Shown here one piece after another: positions 5,162-46,633 of a stretch of 47,023 bases of DNA. Position 1 is the first letter of the stretch. Every line of letters starts with the position of its first letter. Source of the DNA: a virus (taxonomy: Duplodnaviria > Caudoviricetes); IMG/VR virus record IMGVR_UViG_3300037515_000068, positions 1-47,023 of that record; one strand, written 5' to 3'. The position numbers and the translations under genes are program-made. Below the pieces are notes generated by a model, which was given only the letters and a program-made list of their open reading frames with translations, made no database searches and had not been told where the DNA came from.

Positions 5162-7516
5162 ATGGATTACGAGAACGAGGCTTCCGAGCCGAAAGAATCG
5201 AAGGCCGAAGATAGTACGGACATCGTGACCGAGGCCAAAGAGCGGTACGAGCTTGCCAAGGTCGCCTATTCGACACTGCGCGCCGCCGCTCAAGAGGATA
5301 CGAAGTTCTACCTCGGCGACTCTGAGAACGGCTGGCAATGGCCTGAGAACATCAAGCTAAACCGCTCAGAAGTTGAGCGCCGTCCGTGCCTCACGATCAA
5401 CCTGACCGCGCAGCACTGCAACCAGGTAATCAACTCCATCCGCCAAAACCGACCAGCTGCAAAGGTGCGCCCAGTAGACGACAGTTCCGACAAAAAGACC
5501 GCCGAGATTCTTGAGGGTCTAATCCGCAACATCCACAACTACAGCAGCGCGGACGATGCGCACGATTTGGCCGCTGAACATGCTATCGCTGGCGGTGAGG
5601 GATATTGGGCGGTTCGCACCTGCTACGAGTCTGAAAAGAGTTTCAACCAGATTATCAAGATCGACCAGATACCAGACCCGAATATGGTCTATATCGACCC
5701 ATTCGCAAAGAACATCGACCGCTCGGATGCGGATTGGGGGTTTGTGTTTGAGGATGTCTCAAAAGAGTACGTCCGCCGCAAGTGGCCCGACATTAACCCT
5801 TCATCGTGGGCCGAGGATGCGCAAGGATGGACGAAGAAGGACACGGTACGGATTGCCGACTACTACTACTGCGAGTATGTCGATGATGTCCTGTATCAGC
5901 TTCCTACTGGCGATTCTGAGCTAAAGAGCAAAATCCCGCCGCAGATTCTTGAGCAATTGGACATGATGGTGTCGGCAAAAGTGCTGGCAACCCGTCCGAC
6001 CAAGCGCAAAGAGTGGAAAATCTGCAAGCTGATCGGCGGTGAATCCAAGCCTGTCGATATGACAGATTGGCCTGGTTCTACTTTGCCTATCGTGATGGTT
6101 GTCGGCAAGGAACTGACGGTCAACGGCGAAGTAGTGCGCAAGGGCTTAGTCCGCGACCTGAAAGACCCGGCGCGGATGGTCAATTACGCATTTTCCGCCG
6201 CGATTGAGTCTATCGCATTGCAGAACAAAATCCCGTACATGGCCCCGGCTGCGGCTATTGAGGGCTACGAGACAATATGGGATTCCGCGAACATTGAGAA
6301 TCGTTCGTATTTGCCATATAACCACGTTGACGATTCAGGAAATCAGATACCGGCTCCGCAACGCCAGCAAGGAACACAACTCGCATCGGCACAAATTCAG
6401 ATGCTGCAAGTCGCAACCGAGCAAATGCGCGGCGCGTCAGGCCAGCATAACGCCTCGATGGGTATTAAGTCGGAGGCTTCTAGCGGGATTGGCATTCAAC
6501 GGCTCAAATCGCAATCTGAGGTAGCTACGTTCCACTTCCCGGACAACTTCGCCCGCGCTTTGAAGTATGAGGCGCAGATTCTCGTTGACCTGATTACCGG
6601 CGGCAGGGTGATGGACACCAAGCGAGTTATGAGAGTATTGGGGATCGATGGCAAGGAAAGCCAAGCCGTGCTAGACCCGTCCTCACAAGTCGCGCATCAG
6701 GAAGTAGACGGGCTGACGGAAGAGGACGTAACGCGCATATTCAACCCGACAATCGGGCGCTATGACGTGACTATCGACACCGGCCCGAGCTACATGACAC
6801 AACGGCAGGAAACGGCGGCGAACGTGACCGAAATCGCAGCAAGGAATCCGCAAGTAATGCAATTGGCCGGCGACTTGGTATTCCGTTCGTTGGACTTCCC
6901 GCTTGCCGACCAGTTCGCCAAGCGTTTCGAGAAGTCACTACCTCCTGGGTTGAAAGACGAAAAAGGCCAGCCGCAGATTCCGCCGCAGGTTCAACAGGCC
7001 ATCCAGCAGGCGCAGCAGCATATTCAAGAGCAGGATCAGGTTATCCAGCAAATGCAATCTGAATTGCAGAAAAACCAGACAGAGCAACAGCGTGCAGCAT
7101 TGGAGGCTCAGAAGGCGCAAGCCGAAGCTCAAGTAGCGCAGGCAAGACTGCAAATCGACCAAGCCAAGATTCAAATCGACAGCTTCAAAGCTGAGACTGA
7201 GCGGGCGAAAATGGAGTACGAAGCCCGTATAGCAATGGCACAGCAGACGCTGCAAGAATCAGCCGCAAGCGAAGAACAGGACGAATCACAGCAATTGGCA
7301 TTTGAGCAATATAAGGCCGAATTGCAGGCCGAAACAGAGCGCTGGAAAGCGAGGCTCGATGCTGAGACAAAGATGGCAATCGCAGAGATGCAAAGCCGCT
7401 CAGAAGTCCAACAAGAGCATATCCGCACGGCCCCGGCGATGATGGAACACGCGCACGACATGATGCAGAATATGGTCGTGGTTGAAGGAGTCGAAGATGG
7501 CGAAACCGGAAGATAG
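5162..7516 (+). CDS. P22-like portal protein
   Basis: GWQW...RPCLTIN...RQNRP...GLVRDLKDPARMVNY...GRYDVTIDTGPSYMTQRQE; Gln-rich C-terminal coiled coil (barrel). Confidence 0.93.
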   Translation: MDYENEASEPKESKAEDSTDIVTEAKERYELAKVAYSTLRAAAQEDTKFYLGDSENGWQWPENIKLNRSEVERRPCLTINLTAQHCNQVINSIRQNRPAAKVRPVDDSSDKKTAEILEGLIRNIHNYSSADDAHDLAAEHAIAGGEGYWAVRTCYESEKSFNQIIKIDQIPDPNMVYIDPFAKNIDRSDADWGFVFEDVSKEYVRRKWPDINPSSWAEDAQGWTKKDTVRIADYYYCEYVDDVLYQLPTGDSELKSKIPPQILEQLDMMVSAKVLATRPTKRKEWKICKLIGGESKPVDMTDWPGSTLPIVMVVGKELTVNGEVVRKGLVRDLKDPARMVNYAFSAAIESIALQNKIPYMAPAAAIEGYETIWDSANIENRSYLPYNHVDDSGNQIPAPQRQQGTQLASAQIQMLQVATEQMRGASGQHNASMGIKSEASSGIGIQRLKSQSEVATFHFPDNFARALKYEAQILVDLITGGRVMDTKRVMRVLGIDGKESQAVLDPSSQVAHQEVDGLTEEDVTRIFNPTIGRYDVTIDTGPSYMTQRQETAANVTEIAARNPQVMQLAGDLVFRSLDFPLADQFAKRFEKSLPPGLKDEKGQPQIPPQVQQAIQQAQQHIQEQDQVIQQMQSELQKNQTEQQRAALEAQKAQAEAQVAQARLQIDQAKIQIDSFKAETERAKMEYEARIAMAQQTLQESAASEEQDESQQLAFEQYKAELQAETERWKARLDAETKMAIAEMQSRSEVQQEHIRTAPAMMEHAHDMMQNMVVVEGVEDGETGR

Positions 7517-28089: not shown

Positions 28090-28766
28090 TTCACCTCGTC
28101 GGCCATGCGGCGCAGCCAGTTAGATACCATTGTCCCAACAGAATCGTCATTGGTTTCATCTGCCGCTTCCAGTAGTGTGCTTCTCTGCGTCTCTCGCGCC
28201 TTTTCAGCATCGTGCTTGTCGATCCATTGCTGGATGGATTCGGGGGTGGCGTTGAGTGCATTGAAAGCATCTGTCGCATAGTGTGTAAGAACGTCTGCGT
28301 CTTTCTGCGTACTGGCCCCGCAAGCCGCCTCGCCTAGATTATCGCCAAGGTTTTGCAGCATTTCCACCAGCATCGCGTTGTACGCCATTGCCTCATTCAA
28401 GGCACCATCCCAAGAAAGTTCCTTCACAGTTGCGGCGAGGCGCTCGTTCTCTGCTTTGAGTTCTGCTAGTTGCTTCGGCAGCGATAGCACTTCATCTGCA
28501 TCCTTAGTTAACGGATGCCAGTAGGTCGTCCCGGCGTGCAGCCCGGTGAGTCGCATAACTACGCCATCAATATTCCCATCGTAGTCGTTGTATCCGCAGG
28601 CTATGGTGAGTAGTTCCAGTGCTTTGTCAAGCTTCGTTTTGAATTCTGCAATATCCTTGTCTTTCTGCTCGGCGCAGGCTTGCCATGCTTCTTTCGCTGT
28701 CGGCACGCGGTCGTAGTCAGACTCAAAATCCATCCTGAATTCACGGTAATTCGCCTGTTCAGTCAT
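28086..28766 (-). CDS. Hypothetical protein (Ead/Ea22-like mosaic)
   Basis: AKEAWQA, LKAENERL, TLLEAAD motifs. Confidence 0.55.
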   Translation of the reverse strand: MTEQANYREFRMDFESDYDRVPTAKEAWQACAEQKDKDIAEFKTKLDKALELLTIACGYNDYDGNIDGVVMRLTGLHAGTTYWHPLTKDADEVLSLPKQLAELKAENERLAATVKELSWDGALNEAMAYNAMLVEMLQNLGDNLGEAACGASTQKDADVLTHYATDAFNALNATPESIQQWIDKHDAEKARETQRSTLLEAADETNDDSVGTMVSNWLRRMADEVK

Positions 28767-28768
28767 TT

Positions 28769-29035
28769 TTATTCTCCCATGTTTCGGATTGCTTCCGCAT
28801 AAACAACGCCCTCATGCCGGTCAAGGTCGTAGATGTATGGCACAAGGTACTTCTCGCCGCCGTCGAACTTCGTGTAGATTCGATGCGACTTGCAAAACTC
28901 CGCGTCGATTTCTCGCTGGTGCGCTGCGATGTCATTGGCGAAAGCCCACAGTTCCTCCTCCAAATCAACGTAGTCTTCTGGCCAAAGTCCGCGCTGCACC
29001 GCCAGCCGTCTCAACACTTCCCGATCAATAGACAC
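28769..29035 (-). CDS. Hypothetical protein
   Basis: FANDIAAHQREIDAEFC..AEAIRNMG. Confidence 0.5.
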   Translation of the reverse strand: MSIDREVLRRLAVQRGLWPEDYVDLEEELWAFANDIAAHQREIDAEFCKSHRIYTKFDGGEKYLVPYIYDLDRHEGVVYAEAIRNMGE

Positions 29036-29330
29036 TGGGCATCCCCTTCACAAGTTGAACGTCCTTCCGACTCTTACAGGCCGTAACGCGACCGTCTGCT
29101 ACGAATCGAGCGCGACCATCCAAGACCATATCCATCTGCCTGATTACTTCCATCTGATCTTGGACTGCTGCTTTCTGCCGCACCACTTCCTCCCGCCGGT
29201 CGAGGTTGTCCAATAGCACAACGATCACAGCCAAAACGACGGCAGCTTTGATCGTAAAACCTACACGTCGGGTCAACGGGTTGTGCTTGCTCTTCCATGG
29301 GTGCAGGGCGTAGCGGCGTATGCGGTTCAT
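29025..29330 (-). CDS. Hypothetical membrane protein
   Basis: One TM segment. Confidence 0.5.
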   Translation of the reverse strand: MNRIRRYALHPWKSKHNPLTRRVGFTIKAAVVLAVIVVLLDNLDRREEVVRQKAAVQDQMEVIRQMDMVLDGRARFVADGRVTACKSRKDVQLVKGMPSVY

Positions 29331-29335
29331 TCACG

Positions 29336-29539
29336 TCACCCACTTGTTTTTTCTGCCGAGACGATAATCTTCCTGCATTCATCCATCAACCCGGATATGG
29401 TGCATTCAGGCATTTTCTGTGAGTTTTTTCCGTTATATCTCAACCAGTATCGCCCCTTGAACGGTTTCGGCAAAAGCTCCAGCTTGTGCAACTTCCCACC
29501 TGCTACGATAGAGATTCTAACTGTTGCTTTTTGCCTCAA
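29336..29539 (-). CDS. Hypothetical protein
   Basis: AAGGGG RBS before TTG. Confidence 0.5.
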   Translation of the reverse strand: MRQKATVRISIVAGGKLHKLELLPKPFKGRYWLRYNGKNSQKMPECTISGLMDECRKIIVSAEKTSG

Positions 29540-29647
29540 AATATAACCCCTTGAATCTGCTGGATGCGCCTATTTTAATAGTCTCGCACGATTGTGTCGA
29601 TTTATTTAAAAATTAACCATGCGGTGCATATCATTCGTTATGCCCCG

Positions 29648-29827
29648 TCACAGTGATTTAACATCCTGCACGACCGTTACCGCATAGCCAAGCGCCTTGA
29701 TCGCCTTGATCGCGGCATCCGTCAGTGTTGTGGTTCCGGCGATGGCGCAAAATAATTCAGCTTTGTCGCAAGCCGGGAAAATCCGTTGGTTCCCGAACTG
29801 GCTCACAATCCGCACTTTAATTTCCAT
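29648..29827 (-). CDS. Small phage protein in cassette 1
   Basis: MEIKVRIVSQFGNQRIFPACDKAELF..; AAGGTG RBS. Confidence 0.7.
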   Translation of the reverse strand: MEIKVRIVSQFGNQRIFPACDKAELFCAIAGTTTLTDAAIKAIKALGYAVTVVQDVKSL

Positions 29828-29869
29828 GATGTTCACCTTTTAAGTTATTAAGCTTGCCTACTGGTTCGC

Positions 29870-29899
29870 ATAATACAGGCGACGTATTGATCGTGTCAA
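29870..29899 (-). promoter_or_regulatory. Sigma70 promoter inside cassette 1
   Basis: Minus strand TTGACA-18-TATTAT. Confidence 0.6.
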
Positions 29900-29934
29900 G
29901 CGTTATTTTCAAAAGGTAAAAACCGCAGCGTAGG

Positions 29935-30002
29935 GCATAACCGTCGCTTCGAGAGGGACTGGACGAAAAGCGCCGTCCAGCCCCTCAAGCTAATCGTTGT
30001 GC
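29935..30002 (+). repeat. attC site
   Basis: GCATAAC-CGTCG-CTTCGAGAGGGACTGGACG..CGTCCAGCCCCTCAAG-CTAATC-GTTGTGC imperfect hairpin with extrahelical bases. Confidence 0.85.
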
Positions 30003-30268
30003 CACACGTCGATGGCGAAGACCTCAACCGGGTCTTTCCCAAAGTGCGGGTGTGTTATCACCTTCACCGTGTATCCCTTCCACGGCAGCACAAGCCGGCG
30101 CGTGGTGTCGTCTCGCCTCGGGTATCCGTATTTCAGTACAACCGAGTCGTATTTCTTCCCGATCAACTTCTTGCGCCAGTAGTCATTCACAAGCCGGTAT
30201 TCCTCGGGTTTGGTGCCCGCCTTGATCTGGTCGAAATACTCGCCCTTCAAATTCAAAACCAAGTCCAT
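29990..30268 (-). CDS. ASCH/PUA-like domain protein in cassette 2
   Basis: LNLKGEYFDQIKAGTKPEEYR..YW..YGYP; stop lies inside the attC. Confidence 0.8.
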   Translation of the reverse strand: MDLVLNLKGEYFDQIKAGTKPEEYRLVNDYWRKKLIGKKYDSVVLKYGYPRRDDTTRRLVLPWKGYTVKVITHPHFGKDPVEVFAIDVWHND

Positions 30269-30289
30269 TTCTCTCTCCGTTTGGCAGGG

Positions 30290-30353
30290 GCACAACACAT
30301 CATCCGAGCGGGACCGCGCAAAAGCGCGCGGCCCCTCAATTCAGCCGTTAGGC
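30290..30353 (+). repeat. attC site
   Basis: GCACAAC..ATCCGAGCGGGACCGCGC-AAAA-GCGCGCGGCCCCTCAAT..GTTAGGC. Confidence 0.85.
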
Positions 30354-30521
30354 ACTCTTTCGTTTGTACTGCGAAACGTGGGCATTTTTGCAATTGATGC
30401 AAAAATTAAGTGTGGAAGTACCGCATGACCACGCAACATAATCATTATGCCTGTCGCAATCCGTTTTCTTGCACTCCTTACCCGTTCTTGGTTTCGGGTA
30501 AAACTTGTCATAGTTTTCCAT
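30348..30521 (-). CDS. 57-aa Cys-rich protein in cassette 3
   Basis: MENYDKFYPKPRTGKECKKTDC...FCINCKNAH..KSA*; GGAG RBS; TAA lies within the attC core. Confidence 0.6.
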   Translation of the reverse strand: MENYDKFYPKPRTGKECKKTDCDRHNDYVAWSCGTSTLNFCINCKNAHVSQYKRKSA

Positions 30522-30537
30522 GTTTTCTCCAGTGCGG

Positions 30538-30601
30538 GCCTAACCCGTCAATCCAGCGGGACAGGCCAAAAGCGGCCTGCCCCTGATTTCATGCGTTAGA
30601 G
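30538..30601 (+). repeat. attC site
   Basis: GCCTAAC-CCGTC-AATCCAGCGGGACAGGCC..GGCCTGCCCCTGATT-TCATGC-GTTAGAG, aadA-type layout. Confidence 0.9.
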
Positions 30602-30607
30602 GTTCTT

Positions 30608-30829
30608 ATGTCAAAGTTCATATCTAATCTCCTTTACTCGTTGAAAAGCGAAAATGCCAAGCGCCGAGAAATGGAGAAAGCATTCGCCTCTGTTGACGCA
30701 TCGTCTCAAGACGATCCGAATCAATTTACACAAAACGATTGGCATAATCGGCCACTTGGCGTTATTGCTCTTGGCATTATTGCCTCTTTGTTGGCTTGGG
30801 CTGTTTTGCATCATTACGGCCTCGCCTAG
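30608..30829 (+). CDS. Small membrane protein in cassette 4 (canonical cassette orientation)
   Basis: ATG just after the core site, with GAGG RBS overlapping it; C-terminal TM helix. Confidence 0.6.
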   Translation: MSKFISNLLYSLKSENAKRREMEKAFASVDASSQDDPNQFTQNDWHNRPLGVIALGIIASLLAWAVLHHYGLA

Positions 30830-30893
30830 TGCAAAGGTATGCAACTACCGTAGCTCCGATAAACATTGAAAACCATAGCCCCATGTCACAGAC

Positions 30894-30953
30894 CTCTAAC
30901 CCGTCAATCAACCCGGACTCGCCTTCGGCGAGCCGGTTATTTCTGCGTTGGCC
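30894..30953 (+). repeat. attC site
   Basis: CTCTAAC-CCGTC-AATCAACCCGGACTCGCC-TTC-GGCGAGCCGGTTATT-TCTGC-GTTGGCC. Confidence 0.9.
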
Positions 30954-31423
30954 GTCACAGGTTCCCATGCGCTACGCTCCACCGGCTCAACCCACAGTCG
31001 CAGTTTCTGCGAGTGCTTGCCGCACCACAGGCATTCGCGGTGTTCGCCATTCGTCCGCCAGCGCGCGTCGTCGCCGACGAAGTGCATCTTGTGCGCCGGG
31101 TCAATGGCGCAGCGCCCTACGGCGGTGTAGCGTGGCCAAAAGTCCGCAATCTCTACCAGCGGACCGAGCCCGACCCAGCAGGCATGCTCTGCCTTCGTTC
31201 CATTGCACAGCACCTGCATCAGCCGCGCTCCGAAAAGGTCTCCGTTGTCCAGCATCCCAATCCACAGCGCGCCGGCCCTGTCAGAAAAAACCCGGCTCGT
31301 CCAAGCGTGGTGCTTCCGGCTGCGCATCGTCAGCCACTTGTGCAGGTTCGGGCTGTACTTCGCGCTCTTGCTTGGGTGTATCGCGGCCACGTCAAGGCCG
31401 TTCGCTTCTACTGCCAGTGTCAT
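30908..31423 (-). CDS. Hypothetical Cys/His/Trp-rich protein in cassette 5
   Basis: GGAG RBS; CAIDPAH..ECLWCG; reads through into the attC. Confidence 0.7.
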   Translation of the reverse strand: MTLAVEANGLDVAAIHPSKSAKYSPNLHKWLTMRSRKHHAWTSRVFSDRAGALWIGMLDNGDLFGARLMQVLCNGTKAEHACWVGLGPLVEIADFWPRYTAVGRCAIDPAHKMHFVGDDARWRTNGEHRECLWCGKHSQKLRLWVEPVERSAWEPVTANAEITGSPKASPG

Positions 31424-31445
31424 TTGTCGTCTCCAGTAAAGTGCC

Positions 31446-31516
31446 GGCCAACAACCGCATCGAGCGGGACCGTGCGCGATGAGGCCGCGCCCGGCCCCTC
31501 ATGCGGAGCGTTATTC
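31446..31516 (+). repeat. attC site
   Basis: GGCCAAC-AACC-GCATCGAGCGGGACCG..CGGCCCCTCATGC-GGAGC-GTTATTC. Confidence 0.85.
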
Positions 31517-31566
31517 GCTTTGTTCTTCTGCACAAATCTTCCTGCTAACAAGTCGTTTGTGCGTGA

Positions 31567-31776
31567 CTAACTACGCTCTCCTACAATCTTCCTCGCCGCA
31601 GACATCACATCCCGCTTGCTGATCGCCTGACGTAACGCCTCCAACTTGTTGCGCGCTATCTCTTGCGCATGAAGACATTCAAGCGTGGATTTGTCCGCTG
31701 CATCGTCGAGTTCGTCCTGGTACTCGGCAAGCTGGCACATCAGGCGAGCTTTGTCTGTGATGTTTATGTCCGGCAT
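31567..31776 (-). CDS. Hypothetical protein
   Basis: ORF with GGAG RBS in the leftward operon. Confidence 0.5.
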   Translation of the reverse strand: MPDINITDKARLMCQLAEYQDELDDAADKSTLECLHAQEIARNKLEALRQAISKRDVMSAARKIVGERS

Positions 31777-37610: not shown

Positions 37611-37689
37611 ATCATGCCATAACGTATGGCAAAGCACAAGAGGAAATTGCAACTTGTTGAAACCTGCAATATATGGCATCATACCAGCC
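37611..37689. promoter_or_regulatory. Divergent promoter pair and palindromic operator
   Basis: Minus TTGTGC-17-CATGAT and plus TTGTTG-17-CATCAT, both with extended TG; palindrome TGCCATA-ACG-TATGGCA at 37615-37631. Confidence 0.5.
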
Positions 37690-37881
37690 ATGAATAAACG
37701 CAAACTAATCGAATATCTGGGCGGCACTTGCGAGAAGGCCGCGCATAGATTGGGCTACGCATCAGATAATGCGCGCAACAACATCCAGCGCCTGAGCGAC
37801 CCGCTGACCGATCGCCAGGTGCAGACGATCATCATGCGCATGAAGGCCAAGCGGATCAAGATTCCCGAGTCGTTGCTATGA
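37690..37881 (+). CDS. Cro-like regulator (possibly leaderless)
   Basis: MNKRKLIEYLGGTCEKAAHRLGY..LSDPLTDRQ; first gene of the rightward arm. Confidence 0.65.
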   Translation: MNKRKLIEYLGGTCEKAAHRLGYASDNARNNIQRLSDPLTDRQVQTIIMRMKAKRIKIPESLL

Positions 37882-38168
37882 CACAGCAAATAGAAAGACT
37901 CAGGCGGTACAATCGATGGAGGCGCGGCGATAAGCGCCTGAAACAGCCAGACCCAAAGGCGCTTGGCGAACTTATAGACGGCGTTGCGGACAGGATGGAA
38001 GTGCTAGAACGAGAGCGCGCGGAGTTTTTTGAGCGGTGGCACAATGAACGGCGTAAGCGCGAAGCATTGTCCGTAGATGTTGCCCGATGCTTACGGATTA
38101 TGCTATCTGAGCCGCTTAGGGCAGAAAGAATTTTACGTGAAGCATTGACCCTGAGCAATCAGGGCTAA
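37878..38168 (+). CDS. Hypothetical protein
   Basis: LRRYNRWRRG..PKALGELID motif common in phages. Confidence 0.6.
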   Translation: MTQQIERLRRYNRWRRGDKRLKQPDPKALGELIDGVADRMEVLERERAEFFERWHNERRKREALSVDVARCLRIMLSEPLRAERILREALTLSNQG

Positions 38169-38694: not shown

Positions 38695-39418
38695 AATTCG
38701 CTCTATCAAGCCTGACTTCTGGACTGACGAGAAGATCGTAGAGCTTTCCGCTTTCTCGCGCCTGCTGTTCATTGGCCTGTGGAACTTTGCTGACGACGAT
38801 GGGCGCATGGTGTACTCGCCCAAGAAAATCAAGATGCAGATATTCCCCGCCGATACTCTGGATATTTCGGAGTTATTCGGGGAAATTCGGCGGGAATCGC
38901 TGGTTGATATTTATGTCGTTGATGGTGTTGAATATTTGCAGGTAAAGAATTTTGCACAGCACCAGAAGATCGACAAGCGGACAGCATCGAAACTACCAGA
39001 AAATTCCGACTCACCTCCGAATTCCGCCGAATCCCACCGAATCCCAACTACGGAATGGAAGGGAAGGGAAGAGGAAAAGGAAGGGAATGGAATAAAAGCT
39101 ATAGCAACCGGCAAGCCGGTTTGCCCACATCAGGAAATCATCGCCCTATACCACGAGATTCTGCCGTCTTGCCCTGCAATCCGCGACTGGACTACAGCAA
39201 GGGCGGCAGCATTGAAGGCTCGATGGAACGAGGATGCCGAACGGCAATCGCTGGAATACTGGCGACGGCTGTTCGAGTACATCGCCGCGATTCCGTTCCT
39301 GACTGGCAAGGTTTCCAGCTCTGGACGCAAGCCGTTCGTGCTGTCGCTGGACTGGCTGGTGAAGGCCGATAACTTCGCCAAGGTGCGCGAAGGACGCTAC
39401 GAGGATTCCGCAGCATGA
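38687..39418 (+). CDS. Replication initiator protein
   Basis: MARIRSIKPDFWTDEK..LLFIGLWNFADDDGR; C-terminal LDWLVKADNFAKVREGRY. Confidence 0.85.
   Translation: MARIRSIKPDFWTDEKIVELSAFSRLLFIGLWNFADDDGRMVYSPKKIKMQIFPADTLDISELFGEIRRESLVDIYVVDGVEYLQVKNFAQHQKIDKRTASKLPENSDSPPNSAESHRIPTTEWKGREEEKEGNGIKAIATGKPVCPHQEIIALYHEILPSCPAIRDWTTARAAALKARWNEDAERQSLEYWRRLFEYIAAIPFLTGKVSSSGRKPFVLSLDWLVKADNFAKVREGRYEDSAA
38861..39046. other. Putative replication origin (iterons within the initiator gene)
   Basis: 10-bp-period repeats ending TTCGG (38861-38890) and inverted CCGAAT(T/C)C.. x3 (39017-39046) flanking an AT-richer stretch. Confidence 0.55.
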
Positions 39419-40751
39419 GCGACCTATCCGAAAACTTCACTGTCCCGCACAGCACTGACGCAGAGCAATCCGTACTCGGTGGACTGCTGATCGACAACAA
39501 CGCGATTGAGCGCATGGGCGACTTGGAAGAGTCGGCGTTCTACACCGAATCGCACCGCCTGATTTACCGCGCCATCCGCAAGCAAGCTGCTTCCGGCAAG
39601 TCGTGGGATGTCATCACCGTGGCGGAAATGCTCGAATCGGTGAAGCGCTTGGATGCTGTCGGTGGGTTGCCGTACATCGGTAGTCTTGCGCAAAACGTGC
39701 CGTCGGCCGCAAACATTCGCCGCTATGCCGAGATCGTCCGCGAGCATGCCATGCGCCGAGAGATTATGGCCGCCGCTGCCGAACTATCCGAACTGGTCGC
39801 CGCCAATGGAGATGTCGCGGTGGCGATGGACAAAGCGCAATCCCGCCTGATGGCGATTACCGAAGGCGTGCAGACGGACGAGCCGCGCCACATTGCCGAG
39901 ATCGTGACAAGCGGCTTGAAGGCAGCACAAAGGGAATTCCTACCGGCCTGATTGAACTCGATGCAATCCTGAACGGAGGCTGGCATCGCGGGCAGGTGAT
40001 CGTGATGGCGGCAAGGCCTAGCATGGGTAAAACCGCGCTATCGCTGCACAACGCCACGTATGCGGCGCAGCATGGCTACGGCGTGCTGTATCTGAGCATG
40101 GAAATGAAGGATAGCGAACTGGCTGATCGGGCGATTGCCTCGTTGGGTCGTGTCAACCTTGGCAGCATCCTCACAGGTGACATGAAAAGCGAACAATGGG
40201 ATGGAATCACACATGCAGTCGGCAAGGTGCAGGACATCGCGCTGCATGTGCTCGACAAGTCCGGACTGAGCTTCTACCAAGTGGCTACATTCTCGCGCCG
40301 CCACAAGCGCAAGCACGGGCTGGATGTGCTGGTGGTTGACTACTTGCAACTGATGTCCGGAGCGGATGACGAGAAGCGCCACGCTCAGATTGAGGAAATC
40401 ACCCGCAACCTGAAATCTCTGGCGAAGGAGTTGGATATTGCGGTGCTGCTGTTGAGCCAGTTGTCACGTAAGACCGAAGAAAGCCGCCGCCCGAAGTTGT
40501 CGCACCTTCGCGACTCCGGTTCCATCGAACAGGATGCGGATGTTGTGCTGTTCATCCACCGCGAGGAAGTTGACAACCCGGAAACGCAATGGAAGAACTA
40601 CGCGGACATTCATATCGCGAAGAACCGCCAGGGTGCGTTAGGGCGGGTAGGGGCGACGTACATCGGGCATCAGGTGCGCTTCGATAACTTCACCGGCACG
40701 CCGCCGAACTGGGACGAAAAGCCCGCACAAAAACCGAGAGGATACCCGTAA
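39415..40751 (+). pseudogene. dnaB: DnaB-like replicative helicase, frameshifted near 39905
   Basis: N-domain PHSTDAEQSVLGGLL in one frame; KRLEGSTKGIPTGLIELDAILNGGWHRGQVIVMAARPSMGKT, VVDYLQL, LRDSGSIEQDAD in the -1 frame. Confidence 0.85.
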
Positions 40752-44399: not shown

Positions 44400-44819
44400 A
44401 TGAAGAGATCCGAAGAAACAAGGAAGAAAATTTCTGATTCCATGAAAGGGAACCAGAAATGGCTAGGAAAAAAACATTCAGAAGAAACAAAGATTCTTAT
44501 ATCAAAAGCCAAAGCCGGCAAAGATAATTTGAAAGCAAGGAAGCCGATAAAAGCTAATAAAGTTGGCTGTAGCGATTATATATATTTCAGTGGATTGCTA
44601 GAGGCATCTAAAGCATTGGGTATCGGAGCATCAGGGATTTCTATGTGTTGCACAGGCAAGAAATCATCCGCTAGAGGGTATGAGTTTAGATTTACGAGCG
44701 CGCAGGAATTAGGCGTTATTTTTTACGTGCACAACGTAGAGTTCAGCGGGACTCCGGCAGCATCATCGCCGGAGGCTCCGCTGGAACGCCGGGTTGGGCC
44801 TGGCGCACAGGAGGATTGA
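44400..44819 (+). CDS. NUMOD3/NUMOD1-type DNA-binding protein lacking a nuclease domain
   Basis: KRSEETRKKISDS, GKKHSEETK, FSGLLEASKALG..ISMCCTGK..ARGYEF; C-terminus encoded by the attC. Confidence 0.7.
   Translation: MKRSEETRKKISDSMKGNQKWLGKKHSEETKILISKAKAGKDNLKARKPIKANKVGCSDYIYFSGLLEASKALGIGASGISMCCTGKKSSARGYEFRFTSAQELGVIFYVHNVEFSGTPAASSPEAPLERRVGPGAQED
44729..44799 (-). repeat. attC site
   Basis: Minus strand GCCCAAC-CCGGC-GTTCCAGCGG..CCGCTGAAC-TCTAC-GTTGTGC. Confidence 0.88.
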
Positions 44820-44822
44820 GAT

Positions 44823-45020
44823 ATGCAAACAGCGAAAGAGCGAGAAGAAGCGTTTCGCCGCGACCTGGCGGAACTGCTGGCAAAGCACAAGGCTGAACTG
44901 AACATCACCGACGACGGCAGGAGCTACGGAATGCACAGCGGCGTTGCCGAGGTGACGATGATGGGCGAGTGGGACGCGGAAGGGAATCCGACCGCCGACT
45001 ACACGGAGTTTCGGATATGA
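44823..45020 (+). CDS. Hypothetical protein in a cassette
   Basis: GGAGG RBS; fills the cassette. Confidence 0.65.
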   Translation: MQTAKEREEAFRRDLAELLAKHKAELNITDDGRSYGMHSGVAEVTMMGEWDAEGNPTADYTEFRI

Positions 45021-45021
45021 G

Positions 45022-45084
45022 GCCCAACGCCTGAATTAACGCGCCGCCGCTTTTGGCGGTCGAGCCTTGAACGCCGTGTTATGC
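45022..45084 (-). repeat. attC site
   Basis: Minus strand GCATAAC-ACGGC-GTTCAAGGC..ACCGCCAAAAGCGGCGG..GTTAATT-CAGGC-GTTGGGC. Confidence 0.8.
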
Positions 45085-45105
45085 GGCTATTTACAGGAGG
45101 ATGAG

Positions 45106-45381
45106 ATGGTTGATCTTTCAAGGCAGGAAATGACCGGGACGCTGTACGTGTTTGGCGTTCCGGTTTTGAGTGGGCTGTACGCATCGAATGCGGAGGACGC
45201 GATGACATGGCGAAATCGCGTGCCTCCGCTGCTGCGCTGGGCGTGCCGGTTTAGCTGGTTCATGACCTGGACGACGAAAGAGGAATACCGGGACGCGACC
45301 GGCGCGGTGAGGCGGCGAGACAGCCTGCCGCATAACGAAAAATTAACCAGCGGTGCGCACACTGCACCCAAAACGGAGTAG
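45106..45381 (+). CDS. Hypothetical protein in a cassette, reading into the attC
   Basis: AGGAGG RBS (MVDLSRQEM...). Confidence 0.6.
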   Translation: MVDLSRQEMTGTLYVFGVPVLSGLYASNAEDAMTWRNRVPPLLRWACRFSWFMTWTTKEEYRDATGAVRRRDSLPHNEKLTSGAHTAPKTE

Positions 45382-45452
45382 AGAATATGGAACACACTGA
45401 GGACGTAAACAAGGCCGCTGGCGCACCGTCTGAGTTGAATGCCGGGTTAGGC
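45330..45452 (-). repeat. Long attC site (123 bp)
   Basis: Plus-strand GCATAAC..CGGTGCGC..long loop..GCGCACCG..GTTAGGC. Confidence 0.75.
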
Positions 45453-45476
45453 ATTCTAACCACGGAGAGGTGAACG

Positions 45477-45710
45477 ATGATAAAAAACAAAATAATTGAG
45501 CAGCAGGTTATTTTTGAATCTGCGACAGGTAAAAAGGCGCGCAACGTCTATCTCGGCAGGGAAGACATGAAAGACCTTTTGAAATGGGCGCAACTGAACG
45601 GCTACATCATGGACGCTGGCTCGGCGAACATCGAAGGTTTGGACAGGCCTGTGGTAAGAGGATTGAAATGTTTTGAGGTGAACGCGGACAGGCATATTGA
45701 ATGTGCCTAG
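45477..45710 (+). CDS. Hypothetical protein in a cassette
   Basis: GAGGTG RBS; stop inside the attC heptamer. Confidence 0.65.
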   Translation: MIKNKIIEQQVIFESATGKKARNVYLGREDMKDLLKWAQLNGYIMDAGSANIEGLDRPVVRGLKCFEVNADRHIECA

Positions 45711-45772
45711 CGCCTAGCTAACCGGCGCAGGCGGCTTCATCGCCTGCGTCCGGGTTGAGCGACGTGTTATGC
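45705..45772 (-). repeat. attC site with mutated crossover triplet (GTT to GCT)
   Basis: Minus strand GCATAAC-ACGTC-GCTCAACCCGGACGCAGGCG..CGCCTGCGCCGGTTAGC-TAGGC-GCTAGGC. Confidence 0.8.
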
Positions 45773-45813
45773 CGCCGTGCCGCCAGAACCGTTTTTTAAC
45801 CAAGGAGCAAACC

Positions 45814-46095
45814 ATGAACCTGAAATACCGCAAGAAGCCCGTAGTGATCGAAGCGTTTTGTTTGGACGGCGGCGCAATGCCGGAGTGGTTCTTGGACGCA
45901 CGAAGCGCGGGAACCGTGAGGACGTATGCCGAGGGCACTGGCAACCCGTTCGATGACCCGCTGACGCACGCCGAGATTGACACGCTTGAAGGAACGCACA
46001 GAGCGAACCGGGGAGACTGGATCATTCGCGGGATCAAGGGGGAACTGTACCCATGCAAGCCGGACATCTTCGCAGCGACGTATGAAGCGGCATAA
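45814..46095 (+). CDS. Conserved phage protein (KYRKKPVVIEA family) in a cassette
   Basis: IDTLEG..GDWIIRGIKGELYPCKPDIFAATYE; TAA inside GCATAAC. Confidence 0.85.
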   Translation: MNLKYRKKPVVIEAFCLDGGAMPEWFLDARSAGTVRTYAEGTGNPFDDPLTHAEIDTLEGTHRANRGDWIIRGIKGELYPCKPDIFAATYEAA

Positions 46096-46170
46096 CGAGT
46101 AGTTAACTCGGCTGCGCATCGCGCAGTCCGGTGGAGCGAAGCGGAACGAAAGTTAAACGTAGCGCCCTAA
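46090..46170 (-). repeat. Terminal attC with degenerate inverse core
   Basis: Minus strand GTTTAAC..CTGCGC-GAT-GCGCAG..GTTAAC-TACTC-GTTATGC; the expected AAC of the inverse core is absent. Confidence 0.6.
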
Positions 46171-46172
46171 AA

Positions 46173-46361
46173 ATGCCAGAAAGTACACCAGTTTTGATTT
46201 GCCGCGAATGCAAGCAAGCAGTAATCGGCCCGACTGATGGTGATCGCAAGATGGCTAAACAGGGGTATCGTTCCTGTGCTATGGCTGCAACTCCAGCCGA
46301 AAAAGCGCGGTATCATTCCGGCGGGCAGCAATGTAAATATCCGGGGAGGGTAAAGAAGTGA
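46173..46361 (+). CDS. Small Cys-rich protein
   Basis: MPESTPVLICREC..MAKQGYRSC..QQC. Confidence 0.55.
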   Translation: MPESTPVLICRECKQAVIGPTDGDRKMAKQGYRSCAMAATPAEKARYHSGGQQCKYPGRVKK

Positions 46362-46633
46362 GTACACTACACTTACACTTACGATTTGAGTATTTCGATG
46401 CCATAGCGGAAGGCCGTAAATATAAAGAATACCGCGATGCGTCGAAGTGGCAAAAGAAACTGGACAGCGAAAAATATAAATTTATCAGGCTTTATAGGGG
46501 GTTTGAAAAAGTGGCAGACGATACGATTTTGGACATGCCGTACCGTGGCTACGAACTCGAAACAATCGTGCATCCTCATTTCGGGAACGTGGAGAAATTG
46601 GTTTGCGCTATTCATGTCACGCCACAAAAATGA
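46358..46633 (+). CDS. Second ASCH/PUA-like protein
   Basis: LHLRFEYFDAIAEGRKYKEYR..HPHFG. Confidence 0.75.
   Translation: MSTLHLHLRFEYFDAIAEGRKYKEYRDASKWQKKLDSEKYKFIRLYRGFEKVADDTILDMPYRGYELETIVHPHFGNVEKLVCAIHVTPQK

Follow-up and report, generated by a model that had tools for sequence, protein, structure and literature searches.

Antisense gene cassettes in an integrase-less integron-type array of a tailed phage

How does a phage genome come to hold an array of integron-type cassettes without an integrase, and with most of the genes facing against their recombination sites? The window analyzed here is the whole virus record IMGVR_UViG_3300037515_000068 (47,023 nt; CheckV completeness 100%). 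The record is a circle opened inside ninG and lacks only ~3 nt, which leaves no room for a further gene outside the window. The phage encodes P22-like head, portal, and ejection genes, lysis genes at 26.4–27.7 kb, and an early operon that runs leftward (ssb, 3'-5' exonuclease, AAA_24), along with O/DnaB replication genes and a nin region. From its likeness, we take the ORF at 37654–37881 to be Cro-like; no CI-like gene was seen in the window phage. The DnaB helicase at 39415–40751 is divided between two ORFs covering an N-terminal 178 aa and a C-terminal 251 aa. A contig from run X1, which may be the source run, covers 28500–31671 with zero differences from the window. Among GenBank phages and plasmids, only short gene matches were retrieved, and no relative of array 1.

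The preliminary description of this DNA had proposed five attC-like hairpins bounding five units (array 1). All five were recovered by a covariance model trained on 38 attCs, every one from bacterial assemblies:
29935–30002, + strand: attC1, 36.9 bits
30290–30353, + strand: attC2, 61.7 bits
30538–30601, + strand: attC3, 73.2 bits
30894–30953, + strand: attC4, 55.3 bits
31446–31516, + strand: attC5, 28.8 bits; its R' (GTTATTC) is the tail junction
At E ≤ 1 the model reports nine places in the 47-kb window, namely these five and four in a second array at 44.7–45.8 kb. Each array-1 site consists of an R'' AAC, a 5-nt spacer, an 8-nt L'' with an extra C, a 7-nt L', and an R' GTT, with + as the top strand, and in all five the more stable fold is that of the bottom strand. 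A structural scanner (score ≥11) placed five sites inside 1.6 kb here versus 0.08 sites per genome in 12 Markov shuffles; it also flagged lone sites at 5985 and 23275, to which the covariance model gives no support. The sole match of an Rfam search was a chance SorX, with no attC match.

The same description held that the GTT heptamers at the two ends of each unit are exact reverse complements. This proved correct for 5/5 units, the pair differing with each cassette (GTTATGC/GCATAAC, GTTGTGC/GCACAAC, GTTAGGC/GCCTAAC, GTTAGAG/CTCTAAC, and GTTGGCC/GGCCAAC), and the joint chance of five exact pairs is ~3e-7 given heptamer frequencies from 247 units. Such complementarity had been read as the footprint of circles recombined by IntI; it does mark a true cassette unit, and is also found in 60/72 forward bacterial units among the matches listed, but alone it does not prove recombination in this phage. 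The pairing probability of the R box is 0.70–0.98 when cassettes are folded as circles and 0.02–0.94 within the array, attC2 being poorly paired in its present context (0.02) and well paired as a circle (0.94). Array 1 is thus confirmed as a genuine integron-type cassette array in a phage. With five attCs in 1.6 kb and no integron integrase nearby, it also fits the definition of a CALIN (at least two close attCs on one strand).

That the genome lacks a tyrosine recombinase, as had been noted, was borne out on this complete genome by a six-frame profile search of the window, which returned no match to PF00589, TIGR02249, or PF00239 and hence no tyrosine or serine recombinase. A tblastn search of the window with IntI gave no match at E ≤ 10, leaving no IntI remnant either.

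The unusual part of the array, absent from the preliminary description, is its antisense polarity combined with phage-type cargo. Of the five array-1 ORFs, four are encoded on the − strand, in the direction of the early operon and antisense to their attCs; under the usual cassette test of an ORF co-oriented with its attC, a single one is forward. All four ORFs of the second array, on the other side of the genome, are likewise antisense to their attCs. We surveyed 15 of 64 parts of the viral collection and 2 of 64 parts of the bacterial collection with a single attC motif, which an estimated ~560 viral stretches contain, and called ORF strand by a codon model in attC-to-attC units. At least 125 viral and at least 140 bacterial loci were retrieved, 80 of each with long flanks. 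Among the matches listed, 134 viral units in 38 contigs comprised 123 antisense, 3 forward, 7 without a call, and 1 ambiguous, versus 6 antisense, 72 forward, 17 without a call, and 2 ambiguous among 97 bacterial units. Antisense units thus make up 123/126 of the orientable viral units listed versus 6/78 of the bacterial (Fisher p = 8e-44), or, again among the matches listed, 37/37 viral contigs versus 3/25 bacterial loci. Of the six antisense bacterial units, three belong to MAG-binned contigs of phages, and another was probably miscalled.

The strand call itself holds. Among the matches listed, the bottom strand is the more stable in 88% of viral and 82% of bacterial sites, the spacer purine fraction is 0.67 in both sets, and the extra base is C in 112/123 viral and 71/71 bacterial sites. 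Because these asymmetries are alike, the polarity is no artefact of strand assignment, and action of the same enzyme fits both sets. Among the same listed matches, viral antisense ORFs enter the next attC more frequently than bacterial ORFs (44/109 versus 6/68), and some begin within the upstream attC hairpin (16/109 versus 2/68); two long attCs carry a ribosome-binding site and ATG in the loop (window 45330–45452; L217 3896–4010). For this one attC motif, antisense orientation is the rule in viral records and not in bacterial assemblies. The rule is not universal, as the cassettes of phage TJE1 are forward. Separately, one antisense ORF, with no PHROG match, opens an otherwise forward bacterial-type array (L411 1–474).

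The five cassettes are as follows, each unit being on the + strand:
29637–29995: cassette 1, antisense 59-aa ORF at 29648–29827
29899–29870, − strand: predicted promoter of cassette 1's own (TTGACA-18-TATTAT)
29996–30346: cassette 2, antisense 92-aa ORF at 29990–30268 (phrog_625), stop inside attC1
30347–30594: cassette 3, antisense 57-aa cysteine-rich ORF at 30348–30521, stop codon within the R' heptamer
30595–30946: cassette 4, the sole forward ORF at 30608–30829, 73 aa, hydrophobic C-terminus
30947–31509: cassette 5, antisense 171-aa ORF at 30908–31423, final residues running through attC4

Several of these units have relatives elsewhere, both with and without attCs. The gene of cassette 1 has a homologue lacking an attC in L033. 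Cassette 2, whose plasmid homologues are annotated as ASCH-domain proteins, recurs as a whole unit with its attC at 76% identity beside different neighbours in G051; its viral relatives number 19, of which 16 are more than 1.5 kb from any attC, two lie close to sites, and one is the same cassette. For cassette 3, 24 homologues were found, and 8 of the 10 retrieved diverge from the crossover onward into different tails. Cassette 5 shares 83% DNA identity with a cassette in L217; the homology stops at the crossover, and the L217 copy sits under another attC. The attC5 body is 97–99% identical in L130 and L128, where it sits on unrelated genes. The first 30 aa of cassette 4 are 90% identical to those of a forward cassette in L411, a 10-attC bacterial-type array, and a 151-nt stretch of the cassette is found intact in run X4, away from the neighbours it has in array 1. 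Its frame is backed by two protein homologues, the codon score alone leaving the strand ambiguous. On this sequence likeness, cassette 4 was likely captured from a bacterial array.

Named cargo of viral cassettes includes DNA methyltransferases. Among cassette ORFs passing a score filter, PHROG matches numbered 16 in a random 54 of 92 viral ORFs versus 7 in all 54 bacterial ORFs, a trend only (p = 0.059). PADLOC matched 0/16 cassette and flank proteins, so a defence role for cassette 4 is without support, and a search of the ESM Atlas at 0.9 gave no match for the flank gene or cassette 5.

One might suppose that such cassettes are ordinary bacterial ones, either flipped by top-strand recombination or copied as a block from a host integron. 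Top-strand recombination does occur at lower frequency, according to the accessible text of two studies (PMC9892861; PMC5027507), and the attC types match betaproteobacterial ones. Insertion through the top strand would, however, turn the hairpin asymmetry together with the gene, whereas here the extra base marks + as the top strand and the genes lie on −. Cassette 2 moreover travels with an attC on the 5' side of its gene, bacterial arrays are forward, and ordinary phage genes include homologues of the cargo. This explanation is largely refuted, and we give it almost no credence.

If phages have cassettes of their own, the next question is where and how these enter. The head of array 1 contains three features:
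29336–29539, − strand: flank gene (67 aa), occupying the place that phage-borne intI takes in other arrays
29572–29600, − strand: predicted sigma70-like promoter of the flank gene (TCGACA-17-TAAAAT, 10/12)
29621–29643, + strand: fixed array insertion site of divergent attI type, crossover G|TT at 29637/29638
No family match was found for the flank gene, and a role of its protein as an arm-binding domain was dropped, with no match in its support. All four viral relatives of the gene (4/4) have an array opening at the same site. On a matrix built from 21 other phage first sites, the head site ranks first of 1,428 GTT sites; it ranks 1 to 3 of 1,428 once phage first sites enter the matrix, and second when two sites of the same module are removed. 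On a matrix from 12 intI-adjacent attI sites it scores −3.0 (rank 78/1,428), which lends no support to a canonical attI at 29637 and suggests that the site may be decayed or an attG hotspot. A Pc-type promoter reading in from the head reaches just 9/12 matches at 29605–29634, and shuffles yield 1.7 such sites. More broadly, the first sites of 14/21 IntI-less phage arrays score above the 99th percentile on the attI matrix, in a test that omitted five attC-remnant rows.

Relatives vary in content exactly at this crossover, and the comparative check thus favours the cassette reading. Two records (L412/L413; G048, G049) match the window at 91.6% identity for 641 nt, a stretch that ends at 29639; past the crossover they carry two other cassettes, one antisense and one forward, before homology resumes at 31574. 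The forward cassette of L412 encodes a membrane protein, and the complete G049 genome (the L413 record) bears terminal repeats and gave no match to PF00589. In L414 and L127, the same head site is joined to other cassettes, and contigs of runs X2 and X4 part from the window at 29640 and 29639. Whole units bounded at G|TT move intact, with cassettes 2, 3, and 5 recurring among other neighbours. A further set of related, IntI-less phage contigs in G053 (C15, C14, and C7; L423–L425) carries 13–19 antisense attCs each and holds shared, reordered, and duplicated cassettes. Together with C8 (L426), these contigs are binned with a bacterium bearing a normal chromosomal integron, a link by co-binning only. 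Contigs of four runs contained no joined (excised) form of the array, although contigs cannot show absence. Relatives of the phage backbone are mostly array-less: arrays occur in 2/14 relatives by exonuclease, and 0/62 AAA_24 relatives have at least two attC sites, with 7 having one.

Any active exchange needs an enzyme, and some phages encode one. IntI is present in 2/38 array-bearing viral records among the matches listed. Of 11 near-complete array-bearing records not picked through IntI, 10 lack it, including one with ~15 or more cassettes, and only G001 carries it; nine of those 10 have no tyrosine recombinase at all, and one has another tyrosine recombinase. Where present, the phage IntI scores above the TIGR02249 cut-off and is encoded opposite to the attCs behind a clear attI, the standard geometry (G001, G024, G029, G046, and G047). 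In G024, G029, G044, G046, and G047, the gene is flanked by phage genes, inside operons, and co-oriented with early genes. G046 is a provirus with its own serine recombinase, so the intI at its edge is a phage gene, and G047 is a complete phage combining IntI with antisense cassettes. Six viral IntIs cluster together in a 16-row tree with 92/98 support. IntI-bearing phages also include two with apparent DGR genes (L358 5936–7615 and L359 4135–5290), presumably Avd and a reverse transcriptase; the array in L359 abuts a truncated RT gene.

The existence of phage-borne IntI raises the prospect that array 1 is a frozen relic, its ancestral intI lost and its content altered only by deletion or by homologous recombination between phages. 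The weak attI at the head fits this account, as does the second array with its altered R' and lost R''. Against it, two complete recombinase-less relatives with flanks 92% alike have no cassette in common and part at G|TT, array 1 contains a host-type cassette, and IntI-less arrays predominate among the near-complete records. We regard a relic as unlikely. Somewhat less probable still is a supply of integrase chiefly by IntI-encoding phages, whether co-infecting or resident, rather than by the host chromosome. The grouping of the six viral IntIs and the example of G047 speak for such a source; the scarcity of IntI in array-bearing viral records, the resemblance of phage first sites to bacterial attI, and the forward host-type cassettes found in phage arrays speak against it. 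A different, Xer-like recombinase might instead act on the array sites, host Xer enzymes being, to our knowledge, universal. Any recombinase next to such an array is nonetheless a true IntI, nine of the 10 near-complete IntI-less records lack any tyrosine recombinase, and the site asymmetry equals that of IntI substrates; we consider Xer-like action very improbable.

In line with the preliminary description, we favour, as the likely explanation, a real phage cassette array without an integrase, with 4/5 genes antisense, in which an IntI acting in trans, most probably that of the host, would insert and excise cassettes at one fixed site of attI type. Its observed basis comprises the attC anatomy, the lack of a recombinase, the cassette-precise differences, the recurrence of cassettes, and the viral antisense rule. 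IntI acts on attC as a folded bottom strand, joining it to attI and thereby setting cassette orientation, as described in the available portions of PMC5027507 and PMC8876359. In array 1, a circular cassette would recombine, through its folded bottom strand, with the site at 29637. The platform would face against the leftward early operon; new cassettes would be added at the operon's distal end, and the operon would read the array from its tail. Since phage transcripts would read only cassettes with antisense genes, selection would retain these, and phages would keep a cassette pool of their own; forward host cassettes, for instance cassette 4, could enter and would be silent. The polarity probably traces to phages whose early operon ended with a co-oriented intI, as a phage's own IntI at that position would explain why the genes are antisense. 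Once an antisense pool exists, IntI-less phages would need just a site and an enzyme in trans. The source of that enzyme could be the host or, since some phages encode IntI, a co-infecting phage. If the replication origin lies near the O-like gene, the bottom strand of both arrays would be on the lagging-strand template, which is the favourable orientation for recombination in the part of PMC5371416 consulted.

A bolder extension, which we hold tentatively and think less likely than not, is that IntI also serves as a phage integrase, the whole genome entering a host integron as a giant cassette through an attC of its array, and that new cassettes are made from phage genes at the DNA level. Provirus G001 (L006, L015) has intI, attI, and six antisense cassettes on one side of the phage core and, on the other, a second attI-type site and further cassettes up to the edge, which is the permutation expected from attC × attI integration; no further recombinase was found in G001. 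Packaging at the DNA level is suggested by cassette 1, with its promoter and attC-less homologue, and by one attC body on three unrelated genes. Provirus G038 was set aside as a giant-cassette case: its array is at the record edge, but a regex found no second attI.

Integrase-less phage arrays are already known, 17 phage CALINs having been reported in 10,705 phages (Qi et al. 2023, PMC9892861), compared with the ~560 viral stretches estimated here to contain a single attC motif, and IntI1 recombined 5/6 phage attCs in that study. Those arrays likewise comprise attC clusters without intI, small accessory genes, and methyltransferases, with a host IntI implied. In the text available, typical arrays are described and antisense genes, a phage-specific pool, a retained attI, and cassette-precise variation go unmentioned. 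One of its examples, MW202573 (L422 2069–3738), has attCs on − and genes on +, i.e., the antisense layout. Sedentary chromosomal integrons of Betaproteobacteria (Methylophilaceae, Gallionellaceae, Thiobacillus) share attC length, sequence type, strand asymmetry, heptamer complementarity, and attI geometry with the phage arrays, yet theirs combine intI with forward genes read from a head promoter, in contrast to the missing intI, antisense genes, and predicted tail reading here. Insertion at attG (Loot et al., 10.1101/2022.09.11.507474), by which IntI inserts cassettes at GWT sites outside integrons, offers a possible start for an array in a phage; as far as the preprint's accessible text goes, it differs in that the present site keeps its place among relatives and resembles attI in many phages, with a cargo other than the host's pool. 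Inverted-integrase integrons (10.1101/2025.02.12.637893; 10.1101/2022.02.06.479319) are also a polarity variant of the integron, but in the portions available it is the integrase that is turned (intI on the attC strand), whereas here the genes are turned and the intI-attI-attC geometry of intI-bearing phages is standard. Array 1 would work like an integron, is a CALIN by definition rather than a complete integron, as the window has no intI, and breaks cassette co-orientation. Our search of mainly openly accessible literature found no paper on an antisense phage cassette pool.

These results suggest that phages maintain a second cassette pool, in which integron chemistry is combined with reversed gene polarity. 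Phages would gain a site-specific route for swapping accessory genes, adding to genome mosaicism. The polarity would also silence host cassettes in the phage and phage cassettes in the host, and many host integron cassettes are anti-phage according to the accessible part of a recent preprint (10.1101/2024.07.02.601686). Because the cargo has plain phage homologues and one attC occurs on unrelated genes, the genesis of cassettes can be tested with before/after pairs.

The second array lies between a NUMOD3 homing-endonuclease fragment and ninG, and G019 likewise has arrays at both places:
44729–46189, − strand: array 2, in the nin region, partly decayed and antisense, its four ORFs on +
44729–44799, − strand: attC
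45022–45084, − strand: attC
45330–45452, − strand: attC
45705–45772, − strand: attC with R' GCT
46090–46158, − strand: attC without R''
The covariance model finds four of these five attCs. The head attC, the one without R'', joins a stretch weakly like bacterial attI. Near this array, a second phrog_625 gene (46358–46633), the first being cassette 2, stands outside any cassette. Elsewhere in the backbone, the gene at 37878–38168 has no attC; a hybrid cassette in G001 (L006 11547–12011), whose heptamers are mismatched, has a homologue of this gene as its N-terminal half.
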